Assembly: GCA_028864975.1 (NCBI GenBank)
Contig: JAGWLG010000028.1
Location: 1 to 50,042 of the forward strand
Origin: Thermoplasmata archaeon
Lineage (GTDB): Archaea; Thermoplasmatota; Thermoplasmata; Lutacidiplasmatales; UBA184
Length of the DNA: 50,042 bases
Direction of reading: 5' to 3'
Below the pieces are notes generated by a model. That model saw only the letters and a program-made list of their open reading frames with translations, searched no databases and was not told where the DNA came from. Positions 7,530-32,828 of this stretch are shown one piece after another; positions within the stretch are counted from its first letter, which is position 1; every line of letters begins with the position of its first letter. The position numbers and the translations under genes are program-made.

Positions 7530-9692
7530 TCAGTCCTCGGGCGCAGGGAACCCTGGGAGGAGCGGGTCGTGAGGACTACGTCGCTCGGGGGCTCCGCGCC
7601 CCTCCTCTTCGTCCCCGCCCTTTCGGAAGAACTCCCGGGCGATCTGCGGGAGCTCGTGAACGACCTCGAGGCCGGGCATGGCGGCCGCAAAGGTCTTGGC
7701 CCGTCGGTCGAGAATGACCCCCAGCCCCCGGTCGTGCTCGCTTCGGATCATCCGACCGAGCGCCTGGAGCATCGCCCGCTGCGCCGGGGCCCGCATGGCA
7801 TACTCCCACCCGTGTCCCGTGGTGTGGTCGAGGTAGCGCACGAGGGCCTGGCGCTTGACCGTCGGGCGGGGGAAAGGGACCCCGACCAGGACGACGGCCT
7901 CGAGCTCCTCGTCCGGGAAGTCGATCCCCTCCGCGATGCGCCCTCCGCACACGCCCAGGAGGACCCCCGCCCCCGGGGAACGCTTGAACCCCTCGACGAG
8001 CTTCCAGAGCCCCGCGGAAGACAAGGAACGGCTCTCCAGCACGGCCCCCCGGGGGAGCGCGGAGGAGAGGCCCATGGCCAGGAACCGGTCCAGCAGCGCG
8101 AAGCTCGGGAAGAAGACCGCGGTCTTTACCGGGAGCGCGCGGAGCGTTGTGACGAGCGCATCGTAGAGGCGGCGCAGCGCGTCCGGGTCCCCCGCCACCT
8201 CCTCGTGCCGGCTCGAGACCTCGGGGGCGTAGAACAGACGGCGGTGCTCCGGCGGGAAAGGGGAAGGGACGGTGAGGATCTCGCTCTCCTCCGGCAGCCC
8301 CAACGTATCGCGGTACTCCTCAAGCGGAGCAAGGGTCCCGGACATGTGGACCGAGAGATGGCAGGCGCGCACCGGCGCCGCCGCCTCTCGCGCGTCGAGG
8401 GCGTAGGCCTCGAGCTGTCGCCGAGGGCTCTTCCGCGCGACCTTGACGTACTCGGGAGGCTCGGCCCGAGCCCAAGTGAGCATCGTCTCGGCGACGTTGC
8501 CCACGTACGACCGGGGGAGCCGACGCACCTTGCGCCGTTCCTCCCGCAACCTCTCGCCCCACTCGGCGAGCTCCATGAGCATCGGGTTCAGGTCGCGGCT
8601 CGTCCCTCCGAGCTCGATCAGGAGCCGCTCTTCCATGACCCCCGGTGGGAGCAGGCCGTCCTCCTCGGCCGTGAACTCGTCCACGACCTCCCGGTGGGCA
8701 GCGTGGACCGCCTCCACCAGGCCCCGCGCCGTGCGAGGGAGAGAGCTGGCGGAAAGGAGCGGGAAGTCCCCTAGCTCCTGCAGCTCCGCCCGGGCTCGGC
8801 TGATCGTCTCCTCCCCTAGGGTGAGCGAGGCGACCTCGCGCAGGAACTCGGGAAGATTGTGGGCCTCGTCCACGACCAGGTCGACCTGGTCCGACGCGAC
8901 CCCCATCCAGTCGAGGAGCGAGCGGCGTATCCTGGGATGGAAGTAGAAGATGTAGGGGGCGACCACGAGGGAAGCGCTGCGCGCGAGCCGCTTCGCGAGC
9001 TCGTACGGACAGAGGTTCTCCTGCTTCGCCCACTCGGCGAAGCGGGGCGAGTTGGGGACCTCCTTCGCGACGTGCTCCTGGAGCGTCGGGAGGTCGGACG
9101 ACAGCAAGCGCCCGTAGTAGGGACAGCCTTCAAGGTCGGTGAGCTCGAGCGTACCGGAGGGAAGCGGGGTGGTCGAGCTCGCGGCCGGGGCGTCCCCTCC
9201 CGGGGAGGCTTGGGCCCCCATGCGCTTCTCGGTCGCTCGCTTCCGGTCGGAGCAGAGCTTTCCGAACTCTTCCGCCGTCGCGGTCTCCATCTCGGTCAGG
9301 TCCTCGAGCAGGAGGCAGCGCCCTTGCCGCCCCTCGAGGGAGACCGCGAGGATGGGACTGCCCATCCTCCGTGCGATCGCCTGGACCTCCGAGAGGACGT
9401 GGGCCCCTTGCGAGTGGGTCCGGACCAGATAGAGCACCTTGTGGCCAGCCCTTCGCCCGTGGGCGAGGAGCGGTGCGAGGGCGCTGACGGTCTTGCCGGA
9501 ACCCGTGGGGGCGTCGAGGAGCAGGACCCCACCTTTCTCCGTATGGCGATGGACCGCCTCGACGATCGCGGTCTGGGAAGGCCGGAGGCGGTAGGGGAAG
9601 TACGAGGACCAGGGGGGCTCGGGCTCATGCAGAGCCGGGGAAGCTTGCGCCGCGGCGGGCCCGGGAACAGGAACGGGGGGCTCCTCGGCCAA
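7530..9692 (-). CDS. xpd: XPD/Rad3 (DinG-family) Fe-S DNA helicase
   Basis: Walker A DAPTGSGKT, DEAH box (VVDEAHN), four Fe-S Cys (GRC, KLC, GCPY, LCPYE), SGTL, motif VI QALGRMIRSEHDRG. The TTG start is uncertain. Confidence 0.92.
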   Translation of the reverse strand: MAEEPPVPVPGPAAAQASPALHEPEPPWSSYFPYRLRPSQTAIVEAVHRHTEKGGVLLLDAPTGSGKTVSALAPLLAHGRRAGHKVLYLVRTHSQGAHVLSEVQAIARRMGSPILAVSLEGRQGRCLLLEDLTEMETATAEEFGKLCSDRKRATEKRMGAQASPGGDAPAASSTTPLPSGTLELTDLEGCPYYGRLLSSDLPTLQEHVAKEVPNSPRFAEWAKQENLCPYELAKRLARSASLVVAPYIFYFHPRIRRSLLDWMGVASDQVDLVVDEAHNLPEFLREVASLTLGEETISRARAELQELGDFPLLSASSLPRTARGLVEAVHAAHREVVDEFTAEEDGLLPPGVMEERLLIELGGTSRDLNPMLMELAEWGERLREERRKVRRLPRSYVGNVAETMLTWARAEPPEYVKVARKSPRRQLEAYALDAREAAAPVRACHLSVHMSGTLAPLEEYRDTLGLPEESEILTVPSPFPPEHRRLFYAPEVSSRHEEVAGDPDALRRLYDALVTTLRALPVKTAVFFPSFALLDRFLAMGLSSALPRGAVLESRSLSSAGLWKLVEGFKRSPGAGVLLGVCGGRIAEGIDFPDEELEAVVLVGVPFPRPTVKRQALVRYLDHTTGHGWEYAMRAPAQRAMLQALGRMIRSEHDRGLGVILDRRAKTFAAAMPGLEVVHELPQIAREFFRKGGDEEEGRGAPERRSPHDPLLPGFPAPED

Positions 9693-13420: not shown

Positions 13421-14559
13421 TTCGCGCCCCCCGCGAGCAGGTCGCGCGTCGGGGCGTACTTGACCTCCCCGTTCGTCACGAGGACGCTCGCGGCCAGGAT
13501 CTCGTCGGTGAAGGAGGTCGTGAGCTTGCCGTCCTTGCCCACCAGGAGCTCCAGGAAGGCCTGGAGGTTCTTCGCGTAGAGCTGGCTCGAGTGGAAGGAG
13601 AGACGGCTCGGGAGGTTCAAGGGACCCAGGATGCTGACGCCGTTCACGACCACGGTCTCCCCGGGCTTCGTGAGCTCGCAGTTCCCTCCCGACTCAGCGG
13701 CCAGGTCGACGATGACCGATCCAGGGCGCATGTGCGCGACCATGTCCTTGTCGATGAGCCGGGGCGCTTTCCTCCCGGGCACGTTCGCGGTGGTGATGGC
13801 CACGTCCGCGTCGGCGACGGCCTCGGAGACGAGCTTCTGCTGCATCGCCTTCTCTTCGGCCGTGAGCTCGCGTGCGTACCCTCCCGTCCCTTTCGCATCG
13901 ATCTGGAGCTCCAGGAACTTCGCGCCCAGCGAGCGGACCTGCTCGCCCGCTTCCCGGCGCACGTCATAGGCCGAGACCATCGCCCCAAGACGGCGGGCCG
14001 TCGCGATCGCCTGGAGGCCCGCGACCCCCGCACCCATGATCAGCACCTTCGCCGGCCGGACCGTTCCTGCGGCGGTCGTGAGCATCGGGAAGTACTTCGG
14101 ACAGGCCTCGGCGCCTAGGAGGACGCTCTCGTACCCGGCGACGTTCGCCTGGGAGGAGAGGGCGTCCATCACCTGCGCCCGCGTGATGCGCGGGACGAGC
14201 TCCATGGAGAAGGCGGTGAGCTTGCGGTCGCGCAGCGAGACGATGGTGTCGAGGGCGCGGGTGGGGTTCATGAAACCCACGACGATCGCGCCCGGTTTCA
14301 TCCAGGCGACCTCCTCGACGCTCGGAGGCTGGACCTTGAGCAGGATGTCCGCCGAAGCGACCACGTCCTTGCGGTCGGGGACCACCTTCGCGCCGACCTT
14401 GGCGTACGCTTCGTCGGTGTAGTACGCGTTCGTCCCCGCGCCGGCCTCGACCTTCACCTCGACCCCAGACTTCGTGAGGCGGGCGATCACCTCGGGCGTG
14501 AGGGCCACCCGTCGCTCCCCGACGGTGGTCTCCCGAGGGACGGAAACGGTGACCGGCAT
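13417..14559 (-). CDS. pntAA: NAD(P)+ transhydrogenase alpha subunit part 1 (dI)
   Basis: VPRET..GERRVALTP, QVMDALSSQAN, GAGVAGLQAIATARRLGA, DLAAESGGNCELT. Start placed at ATG 14559 rather than the ORF-track 14634. Confidence 0.95.
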   Translation of the reverse strand: MPVTVSVPRETTVGERRVALTPEVIARLTKSGVEVKVEAGAGTNAYYTDEAYAKVGAKVVPDRKDVVASADILLKVQPPSVEEVAWMKPGAIVVGFMNPTRALDTIVSLRDRKLTAFSMELVPRITRAQVMDALSSQANVAGYESVLLGAEACPKYFPMLTTAAGTVRPAKVLIMGAGVAGLQAIATARRLGAMVSAYDVRREAGEQVRSLGAKFLELQIDAKGTGGYARELTAEEKAMQQKLVSEAVADADVAITTANVPGRKAPRLIDKDMVAHMRPGSVIVDLAAESGGNCELTKPGETVVVNGVSILGPLNLPSRLSFHSSQLYAKNLQAFLELLVGKDGKLTTSFTDEILAASVLVTNGEVKYAPTRDLLAGGAK

Positions 14560-14739
14560 GGGCTTCGCGCGGTCCCACGCGGACGGGTAGATATTGGCTA
14601 CGGAGGCGGGGGTCCCGACGAGGGGCCGCGACAATCCACCTTCCCTCCGACAGAAGACGTACCGGTTCGGGAGGACGTTGACGGGCCCGCGAGTGCTGCG
14701 AGGGCCTGGCCCTCGCCCTACGCCGGTGACAGCGTCGGT

Positions 14740-17610
14740 CTAACCTTCCGCGGGCTCGGACCCGGGAGCGTCGTGCTGGCTCTGGAACGCGGATCCGGCT
14801 CCTGGCTCCGGTGTCGTGGAGGGGACGGCCTCGGGCGCGACCTGCATCGAGGACGCGGAGCCCTCGACCGGCTCTTCCGGCTCGGCCCTTTGCGAAGAGG
14901 ACGTAGGGGGACCGCGCCGCGACCGACCCCTGCGGTAGCGAACGAGGAGAGCGGCGAGCACGCTCAGGACCCCGAGGAGAGCGAGGTCCAGGACCCCCAC
15001 GAGCGAGGTCGGGTAGAGTATCGAGAGGGGTCCTGGCAGCCACCCCGGCGGGCCGCCATGCGCAGCGGCCGCGGGCGGACTCGCGGGCTCCGTGAAGGAG
15101 ACCGTGTTCGAGGGAACGCTCGAGTAGGCCCCGGCTCGGGAGAACATGAAGCAGCTGTAGAAGGCCGACGGGGAGAGCCCGGTCACATTGTAGACGGTAG
15201 AGGCGGGAGGTATCGAACCGATGACCCGGGGCGACGCCCCTGCCGAGGAGGAGGTGCAGTTGAGGGTGTAGCTGCCGATCGAGGAGCCCGCGGTCGGGAG
15301 CTGCCAGGAGAGGACCGCGTATCCCGGCCCGACCTCCCCCACCGTCAGGTAGAGCGGGGGTTGGGGCAGTGCGAGCGTGGTGCCGGTCACCCAGACGCTC
15401 CACTGGCCCTGACCGGTCGAGTTGACGCCCGCCAGCGCCAACCAGTACTGGGTCGCCGGCGTCAGACCGCCGAAGCTGTAGGTGGTCGACGCCCCGCCCA
15501 GCGTCGCGATCTGGAACCCACCTTGTCCACCCGTCGGGGGAGAACCTCCGGCAGAGTAGCCGAGCGCGTAGGAGATGAGCGTCCCGGGAGGGGGGGTCCA
15601 CGCGAGGGAGATGGACGTCGTGGTCTCTCCCGTGACGGACAGGCCCGCAGGCGCCCTCGGGACATTGTAGAGGACCACCTCGGTCAAGGTCGAGGGGGAG
15701 GAGGACAGGACGGTCAGGTTGGTGTAGGCCTGGTTCAGCGATTGGACCGACATCCCGCTCCCGGTGACCTGCCACTGGACGAAGACGAAGCCGGGATTGG
15801 GGACGGCGAGGAGAGGGTAGGGGGTCCCGACGGAGGCCGTCACGTTCTGTCCGCTCGAGTAGGTGCTGCCCCCGATCTCGACCGAGGCGGCGTTCGCCGG
15901 GAAGGAGACGAACGTGATCGCGGTCCGGGTGACGAAAGAGACCGTGACCGTGGCGGGAGAGCTGCCGGTGATGGTCAACGTGGTCGAAGGGTTCGTCGCC
16001 GATCCGACGGAGACCGAGCCGGTCGACGACCACCCGCTGAACACGTAGCCGGAAGGGGCGCTGACGGACATCGGAAAGGTGGCCCCGCCGGGAAAGGCCT
16101 GCGACTGCCCGTTCGTGAAGCTCGAGCTCCCTACGGTGATGACCCCCACGGTCGACGGGAGCGTGTAGAACGTGACCGGGGTCCCGATGATCTTGAGGTT
16201 GCACCCCTGCCCGGCGGTCGAGCTCTGTCCCCGGGAGTCCGTCACCTTGACCGTCGGGTTCACCGTGCCCAACGCGGTGTACACGTGGTTCGCCGGGTTC
16301 CCCGAGCCCGTCGTACCATCCCCGAAGCTCCAGGCGTACGTGTAGGGGGAGGTCCCACCCGTCACCGCGGCCGTGAAGCGGAGCGTGTCGAGCGTGTTGA
16401 CACTGTCCCCGCAGTTCACCGACCTCCCCGTGGTGAGGTCGAAGATGGACATGCTGACGGATAGGCCGATGACGTTGAAGGAACAGCCCTGTCCCGTGGT
16501 GGCCGTGTTGCCAGAGCTGTCGGTGACCGTCAGCAGCGGGGTGACAGTTCCGGGCGCCGAGTACACGTGGTTCGCGGGGTTCCCGGACCCGGTACCCCCG
16601 TCGCCGAAGCTCCACGCCCAGGAGTAGGGGGACTGGCCCCCCGACACGGTCCCGGTGAACTGGATGTTGTCCCCGGTGTTGAACGTCCCCCCGCAGGATA
16701 GGGAGCTCCCCGTGGTCGTGTCCTTCATCCCGTAGGAGGAGCTCATGCCGCCGCCCCCCACCGTGAGCGCGGCGTTGTAAGCGACCGCGATGTTCCAGCT
16801 GTAGCTGGCGGTGAGCCCTCCACCAGAGCACATGACTAGGTGCCATGCATCGTACTGGCCCGAGCAGGAGTAGGTCGTCGTGTAGACCAGGCTACCCGCG
16901 TTGTAGGAGGGTCCGAGCACGCCGGGGTCGAAGCTCGCCCCGTAGCGGTTGCTCTCGTATCCCAGGTAGTTCGTCCCAGCGGCGAAGGAGATGAAGTGGA
17001 TCCAGCTGGAGGAGCAGGACCCCCAGTTGCTGTTCGCGTAGTTGAGCGCCCAGGAGTCCGGCGACTGGCTCCCGGCACCGCCCCCGCACCAGGAAGAGGA
17101 GAGGTCCTGCATGATGTCGTTCACCCCGTCGGTCCCGAACGAGGTCTCCGGGCCGGTCTCGGTCACGATGTTGATCTCGGGAACGCCGTAATGAGTGGAG
17201 ACCGTCGAGATCATGTTCCCGTACGTCGAGAGCTCCCAGCGGATGTCGCTCTGGGCCTGCGAGAAGCTGTAGTCCGACCCCGACGAAGGGTACCCGTAGC
17301 CCGAGACCTGGAACCCACCGCTGTCGATCTCCCACGCGAGGCCGGACCCACAGGAGATGTAGTTCGAACAGGAGACCCAGCCTCCCGTACCTGGGTCCGG
17401 AGGCAGCTGCGGGCGTTCGACCCAAGCGGGCGCCCCCGGCAGAGACGCTGGAGCGCCGGACCCGACGGCGAAGTGCACGCTCGCGCCGCTCGTGCCCCAC
17501 GCTCCGGGGAACAGGAGCGCAGCCAGGAGCAAGGCGGGCCCCCATGCGAGGTCAGCGCCAGTGGAAGGGCCGCTCGCGAGCCTGCGAGCGGCGGGCGATT
17601 GCCAGACCAC
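14740..17610 (-). CDS. Membrane-anchored surface protein: putative lysozyme-like/SLT domain + 2 PKD + beta-sandwich spacer + 2 FN3 + TM
   Basis: Signal-like N-terminus. YGVPE-x9-ETSF (E155), IMQ (166-168), AGTNYL (211-216), YNAG (236-239). Two ~85-aa Cys-clamped PKD repeats (WSFGDG), FN3 motifs (APAGLSV...SISLAWTPP; YAVLSWQLP), C-terminal TM then RYRRGRSRR. Confidence 0.75.
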   Translation of the reverse strand: MVWQSPAARRLASGPSTGADLAWGPALLLAALLFPGAWGTSGASVHFAVGSGAPASLPGAPAWVERPQLPPDPGTGGWVSCSNYISCGSGLAWEIDSGGFQVSGYGYPSSGSDYSFSQAQSDIRWELSTYGNMISTVSTHYGVPEINIVTETGPETSFGTDGVNDIMQDLSSSWCGGGAGSQSPDSWALNYANSNWGSCSSSWIHFISFAAGTNYLGYESNRYGASFDPGVLGPSYNAGSLVYTTTYSCSGQYDAWHLVMCSGGGLTASYSWNIAVAYNAALTVGGGGMSSSYGMKDTTTGSSLSCGGTFNTGDNIQFTGTVSGGQSPYSWAWSFGDGGTGSGNPANHVYSAPGTVTPLLTVTDSSGNTATTGQGCSFNVIGLSVSMSIFDLTTGRSVNCGDSVNTLDTLRFTAAVTGGTSPYTYAWSFGDGTTGSGNPANHVYTALGTVNPTVKVTDSRGQSSTAGQGCNLKIIGTPVTFYTLPSTVGVITVGSSSFTNGQSQAFPGGATFPMSVSAPSGYVFSGWSSTGSVSVGSATNPSTTLTITGSSPATVTVSFVTRTAITFVSFPANAASVEIGGSTYSSGQNVTASVGTPYPLLAVPNPGFVFVQWQVTGSGMSVQSLNQAYTNLTVLSSSPSTLTEVVLYNVPRAPAGLSVTGETTTSISLAWTPPPGTLISYALGYSAGGSPPTGGQGGFQIATLGGASTTYSFGGLTPATQYWLALAGVNSTGQGQWSVWVTGTTLALPQPPLYLTVGEVGPGYAVLSWQLPTAGSSIGSYTLNCTSSSAGASPRVIGSIPPASTVYNVTGLSPSAFYSCFMFSRAGAYSSVPSNTVSFTEPASPPAAAAHGGPPGWLPGPLSILYPTSLVGVLDLALLGVLSVLAALLVRYRRGRSRRGPPTSSSQRAEPEEPVEGSASSMQVAPEAVPSTTPEPGAGSAFQSQHDAPGSEPAEG

Positions 17611-17677
17611 GCCCAGAAATGGTCGGGGGTCCCAATTTAGCTTCGGGGGACCGAGGACACCCTACGGATTCCGGAGC

Positions 17678-23831: not shown

Positions 23832-24276
23832 GAGCGCTCCGGGCGCTCCTTCGCGAGCGCGTACGAGGCCGCCCCGAAGGGCGCACCGCGGCCTCTTCCG
23901 AAGCGCGGGCCACGTCGCGGGAGGCGCGGTCCACGTTGCCGAGCAACCACCGAAGGTACGGTTCGTGGACGCGGAACGTCTCCAGCTCGACGATCTCCGG
24001 TACCTCGTACGGGTGGATCCTCGCGAGCTCCCGGAACAACGCGCCCACCTTCTTGGTCGAGGTCTTGAACAGGACCAGGACCTCTTGGGACTCCTCGACC
24101 TTACCCTTCCAACGGTACAGGGAGCGGGCGGGGAGCGCGGTCGCACAGGCGACGACCTTCCGCTCCACGAGCCGCAGGGAAGCCTCGGCGGCGCTCTTGC
24201 CGTCGGGGAACGTCGAGAGGACCAGGCGGAGGGGTCCGGCCCTCGGGCCCTCCCCCAGGCTGGGGGAGCTGGTCAC
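23815..24276 (-). CDS. cutA: Divalent-cation tolerance protein CutA
   Basis: LVERKVVAC, SLYRWKGKVEESQE, FKTS, HPYEVPEI. The GTG start overlaps the DP1 stop (GTGA). Confidence 0.9.
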   Translation of the reverse strand: MTSSPSLGEGPRAGPLRLVLSTFPDGKSAAEASLRLVERKVVACATALPARSLYRWKGKVEESQEVLVLFKTSTKKVGALFRELARIHPYEVPEIVELETFRVHEPYLRWLLGNVDRASRDVARASEEAAVRPSGRPRTRSRRSARSAPSRPS

Positions 24277-25910
24277 GAGGAAGCCCCCGAGGGCTTGGGG
24301 ACGAGAGGTCCCTCTTCCGGCCGCGAGCGGTGGAAGTCGACGACGCTCACGTCGCCTTGCGCGAGATCGACCACGGTCGCGCGGGCCGGTACGGGTCGGA
24401 TGTTGCGCATCCTCTGGTAGTCGGTCTCTCCCTGCCACGTGGAAGCGTTCAACAGCAGGATCCCCCGCCACCACTCGGCGCCGAACGTATGGGTGTGACC
24501 GGTGACGAAGATGTCCGGTACGGGGTCGACCACGAGGCCATCGCGCGGGAGGGAGGCGAGGGGGGTCTTGAGCCCGTAGGAGGGGGCGAGATGGCGCATC
24601 GAGAGCATCCGTTTCATCACCGGGATGGGCTGTTCGTAGCTCATCTTGGGCAGCTGCGGGATGAGGTCGTCGAAGCTCCGCCCATGGTAGGCCTCGATCA
24701 CGACCCCCTCGAGGGCGAAGACGGACGGGTTCGCGACCAGATGGACGTTCGGCGGCAGGTCTCGGGAGAGCTCGGGAGGGAGGGCGGGCTGGGGCTCGGC
24801 GGGACAGACCGCGTCGTGGTTCCCGGGGACGGCGACGATGTTCAGATGCGAGGGCAACTCCTTCACCCTGCGGGCGAGCTCCGCATACTGCTCGACGACG
24901 TCGGCGATCGCCAGGTCGTTCTCCTGGTGCGGATAGATCCCGATGCCATCCACGAGGTCCCCGGCGATCACCACGTGCTCGAGCCCTTCGGCGACCGCCC
25001 CATGTGTCCCCTCTCCGCGGACGAACCCGAGGAGCTCGTTCCAGCTGTCCGTGAGGAACCCCTTGGAGCCGATGTGCAGGTCGGAGAGGAAGAGGGCCTT
25101 GGACGCTCGGGGCGCCCGGGCCGTGGCGCGGGCCACGGGGACCTCGGGCCGTAGCACCGCGCGAGCGATCGGGAGCTTACCCGCTTCCTTGGGAACGAAG
25201 AGGCGGACGCCGAGGACCTCGTCCGGGAGGTAGGTCTCCCGGGCGGCAGGATGCTCCTTGGGGATGAGCACGCGGACCTGGCCGGACTCGTCCTCGAGGG
25301 TCAGGATAAGGAGCTTCTGACGCGGGGTCTCTCGGATGTCCCGCACCATCCCGATGACGGCCGCTTCTCCCGGAGATCGCAGGACCTCGGCCGCGCTGTG
25401 GATCGCCGTGAGGTCGGCCCGGCGGCGCAGGACCTTCGAGAGCTGGCGGAAACGGGAGACCAGGAGGCCGGTCACTCCCTCGAGCGGGGCCCGGGCCTCT
25501 GGAGGGGCGACGAAGCCTTCGCGGATCAGATGGAAAGGGCGCGGCGGGACGACCGATGGCGCGAGCGAGGCACGGGGTTCTTGGCTGGCGAGGGAGGGGA
25601 CGGGCGCGGAGGGAGGCGCCTCGGAGAGGGTCGCGGGGCGCTCCAGCATGAGGCCACCGCTCTCAAGGGCGCTGGGGAGCAAGGAAGCGTTGCCGTGGTT
25701 CCCGCCGTTGCCGCCGTTCCCTCGTTGGGCGACCCGGGAGAGATAGAGGTTCACCGTGTCCGGTGTGACGATGAGCGAGGGGGGCGCGGGGGAAGCGATC
25801 ACGCCCCTGGCGGCGTCCAGGGGCATCGGGGAGGCCAGGATCAGCGCGAGCGCGCTCTCCTCGACCAGGAGGTGGTGTTCCTCGAAGAGGGCCAGGACCC
25901 GGTCCCGCAA
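24273..25910 (-). CDS. polB: Archaeal DNA polymerase D small subunit DP1 (proofreading exonuclease)
   Basis: OB-fold IGMVRDIRET and calcineurin-like motifs SDLHIGSK, AGDLVDG, PGNHD, YHGRS, RHLAP, TGHTH. Confidence 0.95.
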   Translation of the reverse strand: MRDRVLALFEEHHLLVEESALALILASPMPLDAARGVIASPAPPSLIVTPDTVNLYLSRVAQRGNGGNGGNHGNASLLPSALESGGLMLERPATLSEAPPSAPVPSLASQEPRASLAPSVVPPRPFHLIREGFVAPPEARAPLEGVTGLLVSRFRQLSKVLRRRADLTAIHSAAEVLRSPGEAAVIGMVRDIRETPRQKLLILTLEDESGQVRVLIPKEHPAARETYLPDEVLGVRLFVPKEAGKLPIARAVLRPEVPVARATARAPRASKALFLSDLHIGSKGFLTDSWNELLGFVRGEGTHGAVAEGLEHVVIAGDLVDGIGIYPHQENDLAIADVVEQYAELARRVKELPSHLNIVAVPGNHDAVCPAEPQPALPPELSRDLPPNVHLVANPSVFALEGVVIEAYHGRSFDDLIPQLPKMSYEQPIPVMKRMLSMRHLAPSYGLKTPLASLPRDGLVVDPVPDIFVTGHTHTFGAEWWRGILLLNASTWQGETDYQRMRNIRPVPARATVVDLAQGDVSVVDFHRSRPEEGPLVPKPSGASS

Positions 25911-29303: not shown

Positions 29304-32300
29304 TTGCACGTAGGGGGAACGTTCGCATTGTCAACGGTCAGCATCCCGAGAGAAGTTCGAGCCTCGACCCTCCTGGCCCTCGCCGTCCTCGGAGCCTTGC
29401 TCCTCTCGGCGGCCCCCTCCGCAGGGCACGCGACCTCTGCAGAGGCGGCGCCGGTGGCCCATCTGGCGCCATCTTCGTGGGCGGAGCTGCGGGGACTGGC
29501 GGGAGCCTCCCCGACGCCCTCCGCCTTCGGGGCGGCCGCCTCCCCCGAACGGATCTCGCTCCCCTCGGTCCAGGTCTGGTTCGTGATCGAGACCACCCTC
29601 TACGACGGGGTCTATGACCCCAGCGCGGGCGACGTCGGGCGCAGCACCTGCACCGGCCCGTGCAACGAGTCGAACGGCGTGCCGTACTTCATCCAGAACG
29701 CAGGGCGCGTGGCCACGGTCCTTCAAGCGCTCCATCCCGGGCTCTCGCTGAGCTTTGGGCTGGTCGACTACTTCTCGACGAGCAACAGCGGTGCGGCGTG
29801 CGGGGGGACCACGTTCGCGGGCGACCACGACGATGGGGACGGCTGCTCCTTCCACGTGGACATCGCGACCCCTACGGCCGCGTCGAACTTCGGGGCCCAG
29901 GTCGTCGCCACGTTCCAGGCGACGCAGCTCGGCGGAGGCTATGTCCTCGGGGACACGGACTACTCGGACAACATGTTGACCTCTTCCTCGACCGCGTCGC
30001 TCTATGCCCTCCAGGAGAACTTCACCGGATCGTGGGGTCTCGCCCCCTACCATGTCGTCGCCTGGATGGGTTCCACGGCGCCCCGCGACCTCCAGTACCC
30101 CGAGAACTATGTGGCCAGCCAGAGCGACTGGACCACCGGCTGGGGAAGCACCTGCGAGCCCTCGCTCTTCCCGGGAGAGCCGACGTGCGAGGCTTGGCTC
30201 ACGACCCACCTGTCCGTGGGTCAGATCGCCCAACGCAACGGAACGATCCTCAACATGATCGACCTCGCCGCGGGGACGACGAACGCCTCCAGCGGGGACT
30301 ATCAGGTGGCGTCCACGGCGCTCAAGGACACGGCGCGGAACGACTCCTCGCGCATCCTTCGGGCCGGGTGCGAGATGGCGGTCGGGACCGGGGGGATCTG
30401 GGAGGGCCCGCGAGGCTACAACTGCACCGCCGCCCTGGGGACCTCGGGGCAAGGGAACCTGACCTGCCAGGTGGGCTCCTCGTGCTTCCTCTCGGCGAAC
30501 TCCACCAACCCCAACCGCGGCTGGTACTCGAACCCCGCGCTCGGGTTCGCTCTTACCCACCTCCACTTCCCCACGACGACGACGGCGCCCAACCCGCTGG
30601 GAGCCATCCTCGTGGCCTCCCCCTCGCAGATCCAGCTCGGACAGAGCACGACGCTCTCGGTCGTGGGGTCCGCGGGCTCGCCCCCCTACACCGAGAACTA
30701 CCTCGTGCTACCCCCGGGTTGCGTCTCGGCCAACAGCACCAGCCTCGCCTGTACGCCAACGATGGCGGGGAACTACACGCTGCTCGTCAACGTCTCCGAC
30801 ACGCGAGGGCAGCACGCGAACGCCACGACCCTTCTGATGGTCTCCACCAGCCCGCCTCTCGCCGCGTCCGATTCGGGGCACCCCCTCCGTGGCCCCGCGC
30901 CCCTCTCCGTGTACTTCTTCGCGAACGCCACGGGGGGGTACGCTCCGTACGTTTGGAGCTGGACCTTCGGCAACGGCGGCACATCGGCCCTGCAGAACCC
31001 GCTGTACGTCTACAATGCGGCGGGGAACTACTCCGCCCAGGTCGTCGTGACCGACAACAACGGCGCGCAGCTCGCTGCAGGTACCATCACGGTCCAGGTG
31101 CTTCCTCCGCTCACGGCCACGATGACCGCCACGCCCACCTCGGGTCCTGTGTGGCTGCATGTGAACTTCACCTCGACGGCCGCAGGCGGCACCGGGCCCT
31201 ACACGTACTTCTGGTCGTTCGGGGACGGGAACTCGACTCGGGGGGTCGCGGCCACCTCCCACGTCTACGAGCAGCAAGGGACGTTCCTCTCCTCCCTCAC
31301 CGTGAACGACAGCACCGGGGCCACCCTCACGACCTCGAGCTGGATCAGCGTCCTGCCGCCCCCGATCCTGGTCGCTGCGGCGGGTTCTCCGAACGGATCG
31401 GTCGCTCCGGTGAACGTGACCTTCAACGGGACCGCCTCCGGCGGCTCGGCCCCCTACACGTTCTCTTGGTACTTCGGCGACGGGACCTACGGGACCGGCC
31501 GGAACCCTTGGCACGTCTACGTGACCGGGGGGAACTTCACGGTCACGCTGACCGTAACGGACAGCACCTTCAGGTCGGGCACGAAGTCCTTCCTCCTTAC
31601 CGTTCTGGCCCCTCCCCCGCTCCAGGTCGCGGACAGTGCGACGCCGCTCTCCGGGGTCGCGCCGCTGGTGGTGCAGTTCCAGGGGACCGCCATCCAGGGG
31701 GCGCCGCCGTACTCCTACTTCTGGACCTTCGGCGATGGTTCGACCTCCACCTTGGCGTCGCCGTCCCACGTCTACCTCACGGTGGGGACCTATGTGGCGA
31801 GGTTCTCGGTCTCCGATGCGGCGGGGACCCTGGTCGTGGGCAACGCGATCTCCCTCACGGTCTCCGCCGGAGGGACGGCCCTGCGCGCCGCGGCCGCGGT
31901 GAACCCCTCCAGCGGCACGGCCCCGCTCTGGGTGAACTTCACCGGGGCGGCGGGCGGAGGCACGATCCCGTACTACTGGAGCTGGAACTTCGGTGACGGG
32001 TCCCTCCCCGTGAGCGTCGCCTCGCCGGCCCACCTCTACTCCACCCCGGGAACGTTCCATGCGGTGCTGACGGTGAGCGATAGCGCCGGCCATTCCGCCA
32101 ACGCTTCGGCGTGGGTGAACGTTTCGGGCGGAGGGACCCCGCTCTCCGTCACGCTCACCGCCAACCCCTCCGTGATCAACCTCGGCAACTCGACCACCCT
32201 GTCGGTCTCGCTCGCGGGCGGGAGGGCCCCCTACCAGTTCGCCTGGAGCGGTCTGCCGACCGGGTGCGTTGCCGGCGGAGGGATGATCTTCTCTTGCAAG

Positions 32301-32828
32301 CCGACCGTCGCGGGGACCTTCACGGTCACCGTCGCCGTGTCCGATGCCTCGGGCACGATCCAGACCCAGAGCGCCGCGCTCGTGGTCCGAGGTCCGACGG
32401 GCGGGGGCCCCGGATCGAACTCGTCCAGCACGCCCCTCCCGCTGTTGGAACTGGGGGTGCTCGTGCTGGTGGCCCTCGCCGCGATCGTCCTCGTCGCACT
32501 CTTGATGCGGAGACGGTCGAAGTCCGCGCAGCTGGGGGGCCCAGCCCCGCCCCCACCCTCGCAGACGGGCTGGACGAGCGCTTCTGCCGCAGGAGCTGGC
32601 GCTTTCAGCTATCCACCACCACCCTCCCTGGAGCCCCCGCCGCCCCCTCCGCCTTCCTCCCCGTCGCCTGCCCCGCCGCCGCTCTCTTCCGAGCCTGAAG
32701 CAACGTCCGAGAGCGGTGCAGAGGAGTCCCCGGCCGAGCCGTCCTCGTCGGAAAGCGACCAGGGGACCTCCTCCCCTGCCTCCTTCGAGGAACTGGGGAA
32801 CGAGCCGGCGGGCGACCCGCCCAGCTGA
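29304..32828 (+). CDS. Large surface protein: divergent vWA-like domain + Ig-like + 5 PKD + Ig-like + TM + Pro/Ser/Glu tail
   Basis: Signal peptide; domain paralogous to 2503-4737 (ETT.YDGVYD, DHDDGDG, WMGS..PRD, NPALG); five W.FG[DN]G PKD repeats; TM LLELGVLVLVALAAIVLVALLM then RRRSK. Start uncertain (TTG 29304 or 29328). Confidence 0.85.
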   Translation: MHVGGTFALSTVSIPREVRASTLLALAVLGALLLSAAPSAGHATSAEAAPVAHLAPSSWAELRGLAGASPTPSAFGAAASPERISLPSVQVWFVIETTLYDGVYDPSAGDVGRSTCTGPCNESNGVPYFIQNAGRVATVLQALHPGLSLSFGLVDYFSTSNSGAACGGTTFAGDHDDGDGCSFHVDIATPTAASNFGAQVVATFQATQLGGGYVLGDTDYSDNMLTSSSTASLYALQENFTGSWGLAPYHVVAWMGSTAPRDLQYPENYVASQSDWTTGWGSTCEPSLFPGEPTCEAWLTTHLSVGQIAQRNGTILNMIDLAAGTTNASSGDYQVASTALKDTARNDSSRILRAGCEMAVGTGGIWEGPRGYNCTAALGTSGQGNLTCQVGSSCFLSANSTNPNRGWYSNPALGFALTHLHFPTTTTAPNPLGAILVASPSQIQLGQSTTLSVVGSAGSPPYTENYLVLPPGCVSANSTSLACTPTMAGNYTLLVNVSDTRGQHANATTLLMVSTSPPLAASDSGHPLRGPAPLSVYFFANATGGYAPYVWSWTFGNGGTSALQNPLYVYNAAGNYSAQVVVTDNNGAQLAAGTITVQVLPPLTATMTATPTSGPVWLHVNFTSTAAGGTGPYTYFWSFGDGNSTRGVAATSHVYEQQGTFLSSLTVNDSTGATLTTSSWISVLPPPILVAAAGSPNGSVAPVNVTFNGTASGGSAPYTFSWYFGDGTYGTGRNPWHVYVTGGNFTVTLTVTDSTFRSGTKSFLLTVLAPPPLQVADSATPLSGVAPLVVQFQGTAIQGAPPYSYFWTFGDGSTSTLASPSHVYLTVGTYVARFSVSDAAGTLVVGNAISLTVSAGGTALRAAAAVNPSSGTAPLWVNFTGAAGGGTIPYYWSWNFGDGSLPVSVASPAHLYSTPGTFHAVLTVSDSAGHSANASAWVNVSGGGTPLSVTLTANPSVINLGNSTTLSVSLAGGRAPYQFAWSGLPTGCVAGGGMIFSCKPTVAGTFTVTVAVSDASGTIQTQSAALVVRGPTGGGPGSNSSSTPLPLLELGVLVLVALAAIVLVALLMRRRSKSAQLGGPAPPPPSQTGWTSASAAGAGAFSYPPPPSLEPPPPPPPSSPSPAPPPLSSEPEATSESGAEESPAEPSSSESDQGTSSPASFEELGNEPAGDPPS

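Follow-up and report, generated by a model that had tools for sequence, protein, structure and literature searches.

Archaeal enzymes that cut bacterial cell walls have been known since 2014/2025, and archaeal antagonism against bacteria has been documented only recently. Strock et al. 2025 (PLoS Biol, PMC12352652) reported modular peptidoglycan hydrolases (PGHs) in ~5% of archaeal genomes, with Thermoplasmatota prominent and with archaeal proteins combining LysM and SLT domains given in the S2 table; the patchy distribution of these proteins was read as typical of weaponised hydrolases. The GH25 muramidase of Aciduliprofundum boonei (Metcalf et al.) is cited in the same paper. The filter used in that survey kept proteins with at least one Pfam catalytic PGH domain and at least one Pfam cell-wall-binding domain, and existing surveys in general rest on catalytic and wall-binding domains that Pfam can recognise. 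In this current study, we analysed a stretch of 50,042 nucleotides from a Thermoplasmata archaeon (contig JAGWLG010000028.1; GC content, 68%), referred to here as the window, and in particular one gene within it (14740-17610, minus strand), whose 956-amino acid (aa) product we call P0001; a protein identical to P0001 was also present in the protein collection searched (P0002). A first-pass annotation made from the letters alone had proposed that this protein displays a lytic transglycosylase/lysozyme-like domain on the archaeal cell surface. On the combined data we consider it fairly probable that P0001 is a type I surface protein with a highly diverged GH23/SLT head, probably acting on bacterial peptidoglycan.

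The gene is a single open reading frame (ORF) with a GTG start. The gene, its head and the three motifs of the head lie as follows, all on the minus strand:

14740..17610, minus strand: whole gene for the predicted 956-aa type I surface protein, stop codon at 14740-14742 (ORF list and translation, Pfam domains along the length)
16741..17403, minus strand: head, aa 70-290, a divergent GH23/SLT-like (lysozyme-like) domain as judged from alignments A2/A3, PDB profile search, hhalign, AlphaFold2 (AF2) and fold searches
17146..17148, minus strand: codon of E155, putative catalytic general acid, motif I (E-T instead of E-S); invariant in 15/15 members, aligned on MltC Glu217 and Slt70 E505 (precursor numbering)
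17107..17118, minus strand: motif II, D165-I-M-Q168; M167 and Q168 invariant, aligned to GLMQ of MltC and Slt70
16894..16908, minus strand: motif III, S235-Y-N-A-G239; Y236, N237 and G239 invariant, aligned on AYNGG (MltC) and AYNAG (Slt70)

The region to which the first-pass annotation had assigned the domain (16870-17230) corresponds to residues ~128-247, and the motif strings that it quoted were found there as described: Y130-GNMISTVSTHYGVPEINIVTETGP-E155-TSFG, GVND-IMQ (D165-Q168), AAGTNYLGYESNRYG (residues 210-224) and SYNAG (residues 235-239). Its claim that the spacing to the catalytic Glu is preserved also held, given that the G-to-E stretch YGVPEINIVTETGPE spans 14 residues, the same as YGVDESLILAIMQTE in E. 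coli MltC. Conservation was assessed in a 15-sequence family alignment (A3) that contains two deeply diverged clades, referred to here as the window's clade and the sister clade, with 28-65% identity. The columns invariant in all 15 members include E155, M167, Q168, Y236, N237, G239 and Y270; thus the Glu is kept in every homologue (15/15), and hhalign matched Y270 to the Tyr of 'RGYVKNV' in Slt70. Because these seven residues are invariant in 15 members of two deeply diverged clades, the motif match, as judged from the alignment, exceeds chance. Among the three close relatives (P0001, P0003 and P0004), E155, D161, D165, M167, Q168, AAGT and YN.GS are invariant. Motif II varies between the clades, with the G of GLMQ replaced by D in the window's clade and by N in the sister clade and the L replaced by I or V, and E155 is followed by T, not S. 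The N-terminal beta-hairpin of the head is also conserved, including two Trp residues that are invariant, and the six Cys residues of the head (81, 87, 175, 199, 249 and 261) probably form three disulfides.

The relationship of the head to known enzymes was measured through profile searches. When the A3 profile was compared with PDB sequences, ten matches were obtained at E<=10, and 8/10 were lytic transglycosylases; the best was MltC (4c5f, E=0.0011), and SltB1, Slt and MltB gave E-values of 0.034, 0.36 and 0.92, respectively. In the MltC alignment, E155 fell on Glu217, the E of 'IMQTESSF', 'nvmq' fell on GLMQ, and 'aYnaG' fell on AYNGG. The Glu217 position is Q in the 4cfo chain, which is presumably a catalytic-site mutant. 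Similarly, E155 aligned on the ES of Slt70 (E505 of the precursor). An SLT reference alignment, built from the SLT domains of E. coli Slt70, MltC, MltD, MltE and MltF, was also compared with the family by hhalign. The match of A3 to this reference had a probability of 77.8% (P=1.9e-5), extended across 132 columns and kept the expected register, and the sister clade alone matched the reference with 64.9% probability (P=6.1e-5; 91 columns). The window's clade in turn matched the sister clade with 99.0% probability (P=4.7e-18; 178 columns). The controls, one reversed and 10 column-shuffled SLT alignments, reached no more than 0.2% (P>=0.37). The lysozyme-like/SLT relationship put forward in the first-pass annotation is therefore upheld transitively only, from the window's clade to the sister clade (hhalign 99%) and from there to SLT (Pfam PF01464, PDB MltC, hhalign 65-78%); as a transitive rather than a direct match, we regard the assignment as moderately strong. 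Since the tests of motifs I and III and of the profiles were positive, motif II agreed in M167 and Q168 but differed in its first two residues, the Pfam cut-off was not reached and the weak fold evidence leans positive, the head is best described from these alignments as SLT-like, a remote GH23 branch, rather than as a plain SLT member. Positions 64-112 of the A3 profile also matched PDB 9k3e_C and 9pw2_B ('immunity protein of DddB' and 'MEI', respectively; E ~0.008-0.009). That match spans a helix-plus-Glu stretch, '...YEVPEQ.FIITRSTTERSGG', which resembles the SLT pre-catalytic helix locally, and it is probably due to chance.

Several results weigh against this assignment. The head (aa 70-290) passes no Pfam cut-off, and the only domains above cut-off in P0001 are PKD, Flg_new_2 and fn3. 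The sole trace of a catalytic family in P0001 by Pfam was SLT_2, at E=0.14 and 11.8 bits (cut-off, 24.3) over residues 127-162; among the three close relatives, SLT_2 gave E=0.13-0.15 in two. A phmmer search of PDB sequences with the single head sequence gave 0 matches at E<=10, and in hhalign the window's clade alone matched the SLT reference with only 3.4% probability (P=0.013; 113 columns), which is not significant. The pre-catalytic helix (INIVTETGP) is unusually polar, motif I reads ET where SLT has ES, motif II reads DIMQ where SLT has GLMQ, and the window's clade carries an insertion of its own (~27 aa, placed between motifs II and III), which remodels the groove. P0001 contains no recognised wall-binding module, and GH23 also includes chitinases. 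Structure prediction points the same way in its confidence: AF2 run on A3 gave a low-confidence model (pLDDT 49, pTM 0.57), in which an N-terminal beta-hairpin is followed by a mostly helical domain; when run on three sequences, pLDDT was 34. In a Foldseek search of the model against PDB, no match was found at E<=0.001 (E>=0.27), and the VIA-align Z-scores described below stay under 8, which is middling by the tool's own scale; Z-scores of 7-8 are typical of the best chance match, and are higher for helical proteins. A search of NCBIfam returned nothing for the head, and the ESM Atlas gave no feature match for the protein. Two minor leads were set aside, namely one ribosomal-protein match, the only one obtained with a three-sequence profile against PDB and judged to be chance, and weak alpha/beta-hydrolase-like matches (TM-score <=0.40) of a low-confidence whole-protein model in the ESM Atlas.

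The identity of the structural matches was nevertheless consistent. As to the lysozyme-like fold expected from the first-pass annotation, the Foldseek outcome was divided: no row was significant, but the top rows were GH23 g-type lysozymes, the GH23 chitinase of Ralstonia (ranks 7-16) and lytic transglycosylases. When the model was compared by VIA-align with 48,161 PDB representative chains, the Z-scores were 7.2 for SltB1, 7.1 for MltE, 6.9 for Tse3, 6.1 for MltF, 6.0 for FlgJ, 5.8 for g-type lysozyme and 5.0 for MltC. Practically all of the first ~28 rows were lysozyme-like wall or chitin glycosidases, with the GH23 chitinase at rank 16. The fold evidence is thus weak but consistent with the assignment, and not proof of it. 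Given the lack of a significant direct match for the window's sequence, the low-confidence model, Z-scores in the range of chance and the ESM Atlas result, it could be argued that the SLT resemblance is convergent or spurious and that a generic scaffold of archaeal surface proteins here carries a helical domain with no relation to SLT. We regard this as quite improbable, because four independent lines (Pfam SLT/SLT_2, PDB sequences, hhalign with controls, and the two structural searches) arrive at the same family and register, and the fusion partners described next are murein enzymes.

Relatives of the head are rare. When 1.84 billion representative proteins were searched exhaustively with phmmer, only two other proteins were returned, P0003 and P0004. 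P0004 is 444 aa long and 45% identical. P0003 (966 aa) has a GH25 muramidase domain at its N-terminus and the SLT-like domain at its C-terminus, and its contig is archaeal (tRNA-splicing endonuclease and Rpr2). Another contig (L006; JAKBKR010000311.1) also encodes a GH25 and SLT-like fusion, with 62% identity to the window's head. The record of that contig is labelled 'MAG: bacterium isolate DX1.bin10', while all other carriers whose origin could be judged are archaeal (Thermoplasmata); this suggests a mis-binned or mis-labelled metagenome-assembled genome (MAG). When 401 genomes of the class were searched with a profile, more remote relatives appeared in five to eight additional genomes (E 1e-5 to 1e-8 in five), and a 5.8-billion-protein index yielded more members, one of them named 'amidase domain-containing protein [Thermoplasmata archaeon]'. 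The Thermoplasmata sequences of the sister clade show textbook SLT motifs (VESSGG, GNVMQ and AAYNAG; ...LIYAIMLVESSGGQGGGNVMQ...AAYNAG) and give Pfam SLT matches, one of which (an ORF of L018) is above cut-off (PF01464, 21.8 vs 21.3 bits). Sister-clade proteins also bear LysM, SH3_3 and Amidase_6/NlpC_P60 modules. In P0006 (L017, G320), the SLT-like domain is combined with SH3_3 and Amidase_6/NlpC_P60; other members add two SH3_3 domains and a C-terminal LysM; and in P0010 (976 aa; also L020, G206:C11) the SLT-like domain (aa ~690-920) is preceded at the N-terminus by a pro-kumamolisin activation domain, by which sedolisin-type peptidases are recognised in Pfam.

The family was found in 10/401 genomes of the class and in 1/59 other genomes of the same family as the source genome, a patchy pattern that, on the reading of Strock et al., fits weaponised hydrolases. 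A genome contig scan gave two loci, and a metagenome contig scan with alignment A1 gave 162 pattern matches and 0 relatives. In a phylum-wide sample of 401 genomes, matches occurred in same-class genomes only; outside the class, none of the genomes searched yielded the family, although this does not prove its absence there. In the source genome it is single-copy, with the A3 profile finding no copy other than the window's at E<=1.

These relatives bear on the possibility that the head is non-catalytic, a glycan-binding or adhesion module for bacterial cells or wall fragments that either targets the GH25 paralogues described below or mediates episymbiosis. Such a role would fit the degenerate motifs (ET, DIMQ and the polar pre-catalytic helix) and the distance of the window's clade from canonical SLT, and in a protein with no separate wall-binding domain binding would fall to the head itself. 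On the other hand, the Glu and the other SLT signature residues are invariant down to 28% identity, the pattern expected of a maintained active site, and the domain in P0003 occupies a position often taken by the second catalytic domain of a two-enzyme lysin. A purely adhesive head is in our view unlikely. Much the same can be said, with only slightly more in its favour, of a GH23-like enzyme whose natural substrate is chitin, chito-oligosaccharides or another GlcNAc glycan (fungal or arthropod debris, or exopolysaccharide) and which serves in nutrient foraging. GH23 includes a true chitinase, that of Ralstonia sp. A-471, which is among the fold matches; the LysM of the sister-clade proteins binds chitin as well as peptidoglycan (PMC12352652); and the clade-specific insertion remodels the groove, while the G-to-D change in GLMQ adds a carboxylate. 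Against chitin, the head is fused to or swapped with murein-specific enzymes (GH25 muramidases and an NlpC/P60-type amidase), and in sequence it is matched best by lytic transglycosylases rather than by chitinases.

The source genome (3.6 Mb, 89.6% complete) supports a bacterial-wall target over a role in the producer itself. The first-pass annotation had assumed an archaeon without peptidoglycan, and this was supported on both counts. The window contains the archaeal PolD small subunit (DNA_pol_E_B and Metallophos; 24273-25910, minus strand) and an XPD-type helicase (7530-9692, minus strand). GT51 transglycosylase, penicillin-binding protein (PBP) transpeptidase and SEDS polymerases gave 0 matches in the 89.6%-complete genome, and all three were found in ten bacterial controls. 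One Mur_ligase_M match was rejected as a sign of murein synthesis, as murein-free control archaea match too. With no murein polymerase gene detected, we rejected housekeeping of the organism's own wall as a function of P0001.

The genome encodes four GH25 genes, each in a large ORF. One of them, the paralogue G000:C54 (L027:1267-3798, plus strand; 843 aa), consists of a GH25 head followed by PKD, an InlB B-repeat, two fibronectin type III (FN3) domains, a transmembrane (TM) segment and a tail. Across 584 aa of stalk and anchor, G000:C54 and P0001 share 52% identity, while their heads are unrelated; the sequences clearly show a head swap, with the scaffold in common. The other GH25 genes are on G000:C97 (L028:1340-3952, minus strand) and G000:C15 (L029:3-1472, minus strand, and L029:4433-7240, plus strand), again as large PKD-bearing ORFs. 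The two genes on C15 are ~3 kb apart and flank a 1056-aa PKD/CarboxypepD_reg-like protein (L029:1542-4712, minus strand). The head swap, together with the GH25 fusions in P0003 and L006, gives the strongest reason from context to regard the head as a module that cuts murein glycan, and the GH25 head-swap paralogue and the GH25 fusion likewise strengthen the proposal that bacterial walls are attacked or foraged upon. It is conceivable, and we offer it as a tentative extension only, that Thermoplasmata have evolved their own, hitherto overlooked GH23/SLT branch (confined to the class in the sampled genomes) that is interchangeable with GH25 as a 'warhead' on a common cell-anchored stalk, and that these archaea lyse or graze bacteria by contact and not with diffusible lysins. 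If true, this would amount to a contact-dependent antibacterial surface armoury.

The remaining features of the gene describe how the head would be carried. On the minus strand throughout, they are:

17634..17639, minus strand: TAAATT, an AT-rich TATA-like box lying 24-29 nucleotides upstream of the start codon (GC content of the genome, 68%)
17491..17610, minus strand: signal-peptide-like N-terminus, aa 1-40, with a basic n-region containing RR, a hydrophobic PALLLAALLFPGAWG and then small residues (read from the translation)
16201..16713, minus strand: two PKD domains, aa ~300-470 (Pfam PKD_4, E=2.1e-21, two stretches)
15691..16179, minus strand: two InlB B-repeat-like (Flg_new_2) beta domains, aa ~478-640 (Pfam PF18998, E=7.8e-6, two stretches; TIGR02543 repeat)
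15091..15654, minus strand: two fibronectin type III domains, aa 653-840 (Pfam fn3, E=1.3e-19, two stretches)
14941..15021, minus strand: predicted single TM helix, aa ~864-890, followed by RYRRGRSRRG (Kyte-Doolittle 19-residue windows >1.6 only at 861-874)
14743..14940, minus strand: putative cytoplasmic tail, a basic patch and then a Pro/Glu/Ser-rich low-complexity tail of ~65 aa (sequence; positive-inside rule)

The PKD/FN3 stalk and membrane anchor that the first-pass annotation had described are both present, given the PKD, InlB-type B-repeat and FN3 domains recognised by Pfam and the one C-terminal TM segment found by hydropathy. The signal-like N-terminus, the six Cys residues of the head, the stalk domains, the TM segment and the basic patch support surface display. 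By the positive-inside rule, under which basic residues flanking a membrane segment lie on the cytoplasmic side, the predicted topology is head out and tail in. The TAAATT box suggests that the gene may be transcribed from its own archaeal promoter, with no leader or a short one on the mRNA. The genes around it (PntA, PntB, citrate synthase, malate dehydrogenase and PGK) have housekeeping functions, and the gene has no obvious island location. An overlapping 960-aa ORF (13964-16846, minus strand) was taken for an artefact of high GC content, because the Pfam domains fall in the frame of 14740-17610. Elsewhere in the window (29304-32828, plus strand), a 1174-aa ORF carries five PKD domains in its C-terminal half (aa ~690-1100), and its N-terminal ~690 aa are without a Pfam match; it may encode another head-on-stalk surface protein.

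A working model for P0001 can be proposed from these features. Once the protein is exported, about six Ig-like domains (two PKD, two B-repeat and two FN3) would form a stalk and keep the disulfide-stabilised head some tens of nanometres off the membrane. E155, at the end of the helix after YGVPE, would act as the general acid that protonates the beta-1,4 bond of a MurNAc-GlcNAc glycan, and the DIMQ and SYNAG motifs would line the groove. The product would be 1,6-anhydroMurNAc, as in lytic transglycosylase chemistry, or a hydrolysis product; for the latter, it is a speculation that either Asp161 or Asp165 (both invariant in the window's clade, with Asp165 in place of the Gly of GLMQ) could act as the base that activates water, as happens in g-type lysozymes. 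Because the producer lacks murein, bacterial peptidoglycan or wall debris would be the most likely substrate. Pseudomurein, which has beta-1,3 linkages and is lysozyme-resistant, was considered an unlikely one. Tethering would direct the enzyme to cells or debris that the archaeon contacts, so that the targets would be bacteria or wall fragments touching its surface, and the outcome would be lysis of the neighbour, harvest of wall sugars and peptides, or both.

Compared with known systems, the head most resembles the family 1 lytic transglycosylases (SLT, PF01464, GH23; MltC, MltE and Slt70). The order and spacing of the motifs are the same, and the shared signature comprises the helix with YGV..., the catalytic Glu, xxMQ, the A..YL helix, (A/S)YNxG and a downstream Tyr. 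Like these enzymes, the predicted domain is mostly helical, and SLT proteins are among its best structural matches. Unlike them, it falls below the Pfam cut-off, has ET for ES, DIMQ for GLMQ and a polar helix, and contains a beta-hairpin with two invariant Trp residues and the ~27-aa insertion. Moreover, P0001 is predicted to sit on a C-terminal TM helix and an Ig-like stalk, whereas SLT enzymes are periplasmic proteins or lipoproteins, and because its host is an archaeon without murein, it would be no housekeeping autolysin. The family would thus add to GH23 a remote branch with altered active-site motifs (ET, D/N-[IV]-MQ), which bears on what makes such an enzyme a lytic transglycosylase or a hydrolase.

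Goose-type lysozymes and the GH23 chitinase of Ralstonia sp. A-471 belong to the same superfamily and occupy top Foldseek rows for the model; no significant sequence similarity connects them with the head. They are hydrolases with extra carboxylates near the Glu, and in the window's clade E155 is followed by the invariant Asp161 and Asp165. These two residues probably do not correspond one-to-one with D86 and D97 of goose egg-white lysozyme (GEWL).

The archaeal hydrolases of Strock et al. (PMC12352652) are the closest parallel in biology. In both cases, a murein-directed domain, putative in P0001, is part of a secreted protein of a murein-free archaeon, the distribution is patchy, and the domains are shuffled. 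A literature search on lytic transglycosylases in Thermoplasmata returned nothing specific. The sister-clade proteins do carry LysM or SH3_3 together with Amidase_6/NLPC_P60, as the definition used by Strock et al. asks. In contrast to that set, P0001 has neither a catalytic nor a wall-binding Pfam domain above cut-off, and therefore their filter would miss it. P0001 illustrates how wall-cutting heads that are diverged and lineage-specific, some of them tethered rather than released, can escape surveys of this kind. Furthermore, P0001 appears to be tethered to its producer by a stalk that it has in common with a GH25 paralogue, and the words 'transmembrane', 'anchor' and 'tethered' do not occur in the main text of PMC12352652 (word search). 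The head-swap pair in one genome would allow clean tests of how archaea without a wall make use of bacterial walls. Taken together, peptidoglycan hydrolases in murein-free archaea have already been published, and what the present locus adds is a lineage-restricted, Pfam-invisible GH23 branch with altered motifs that appears to be interchangeable with GH25 on an anchored stalk.

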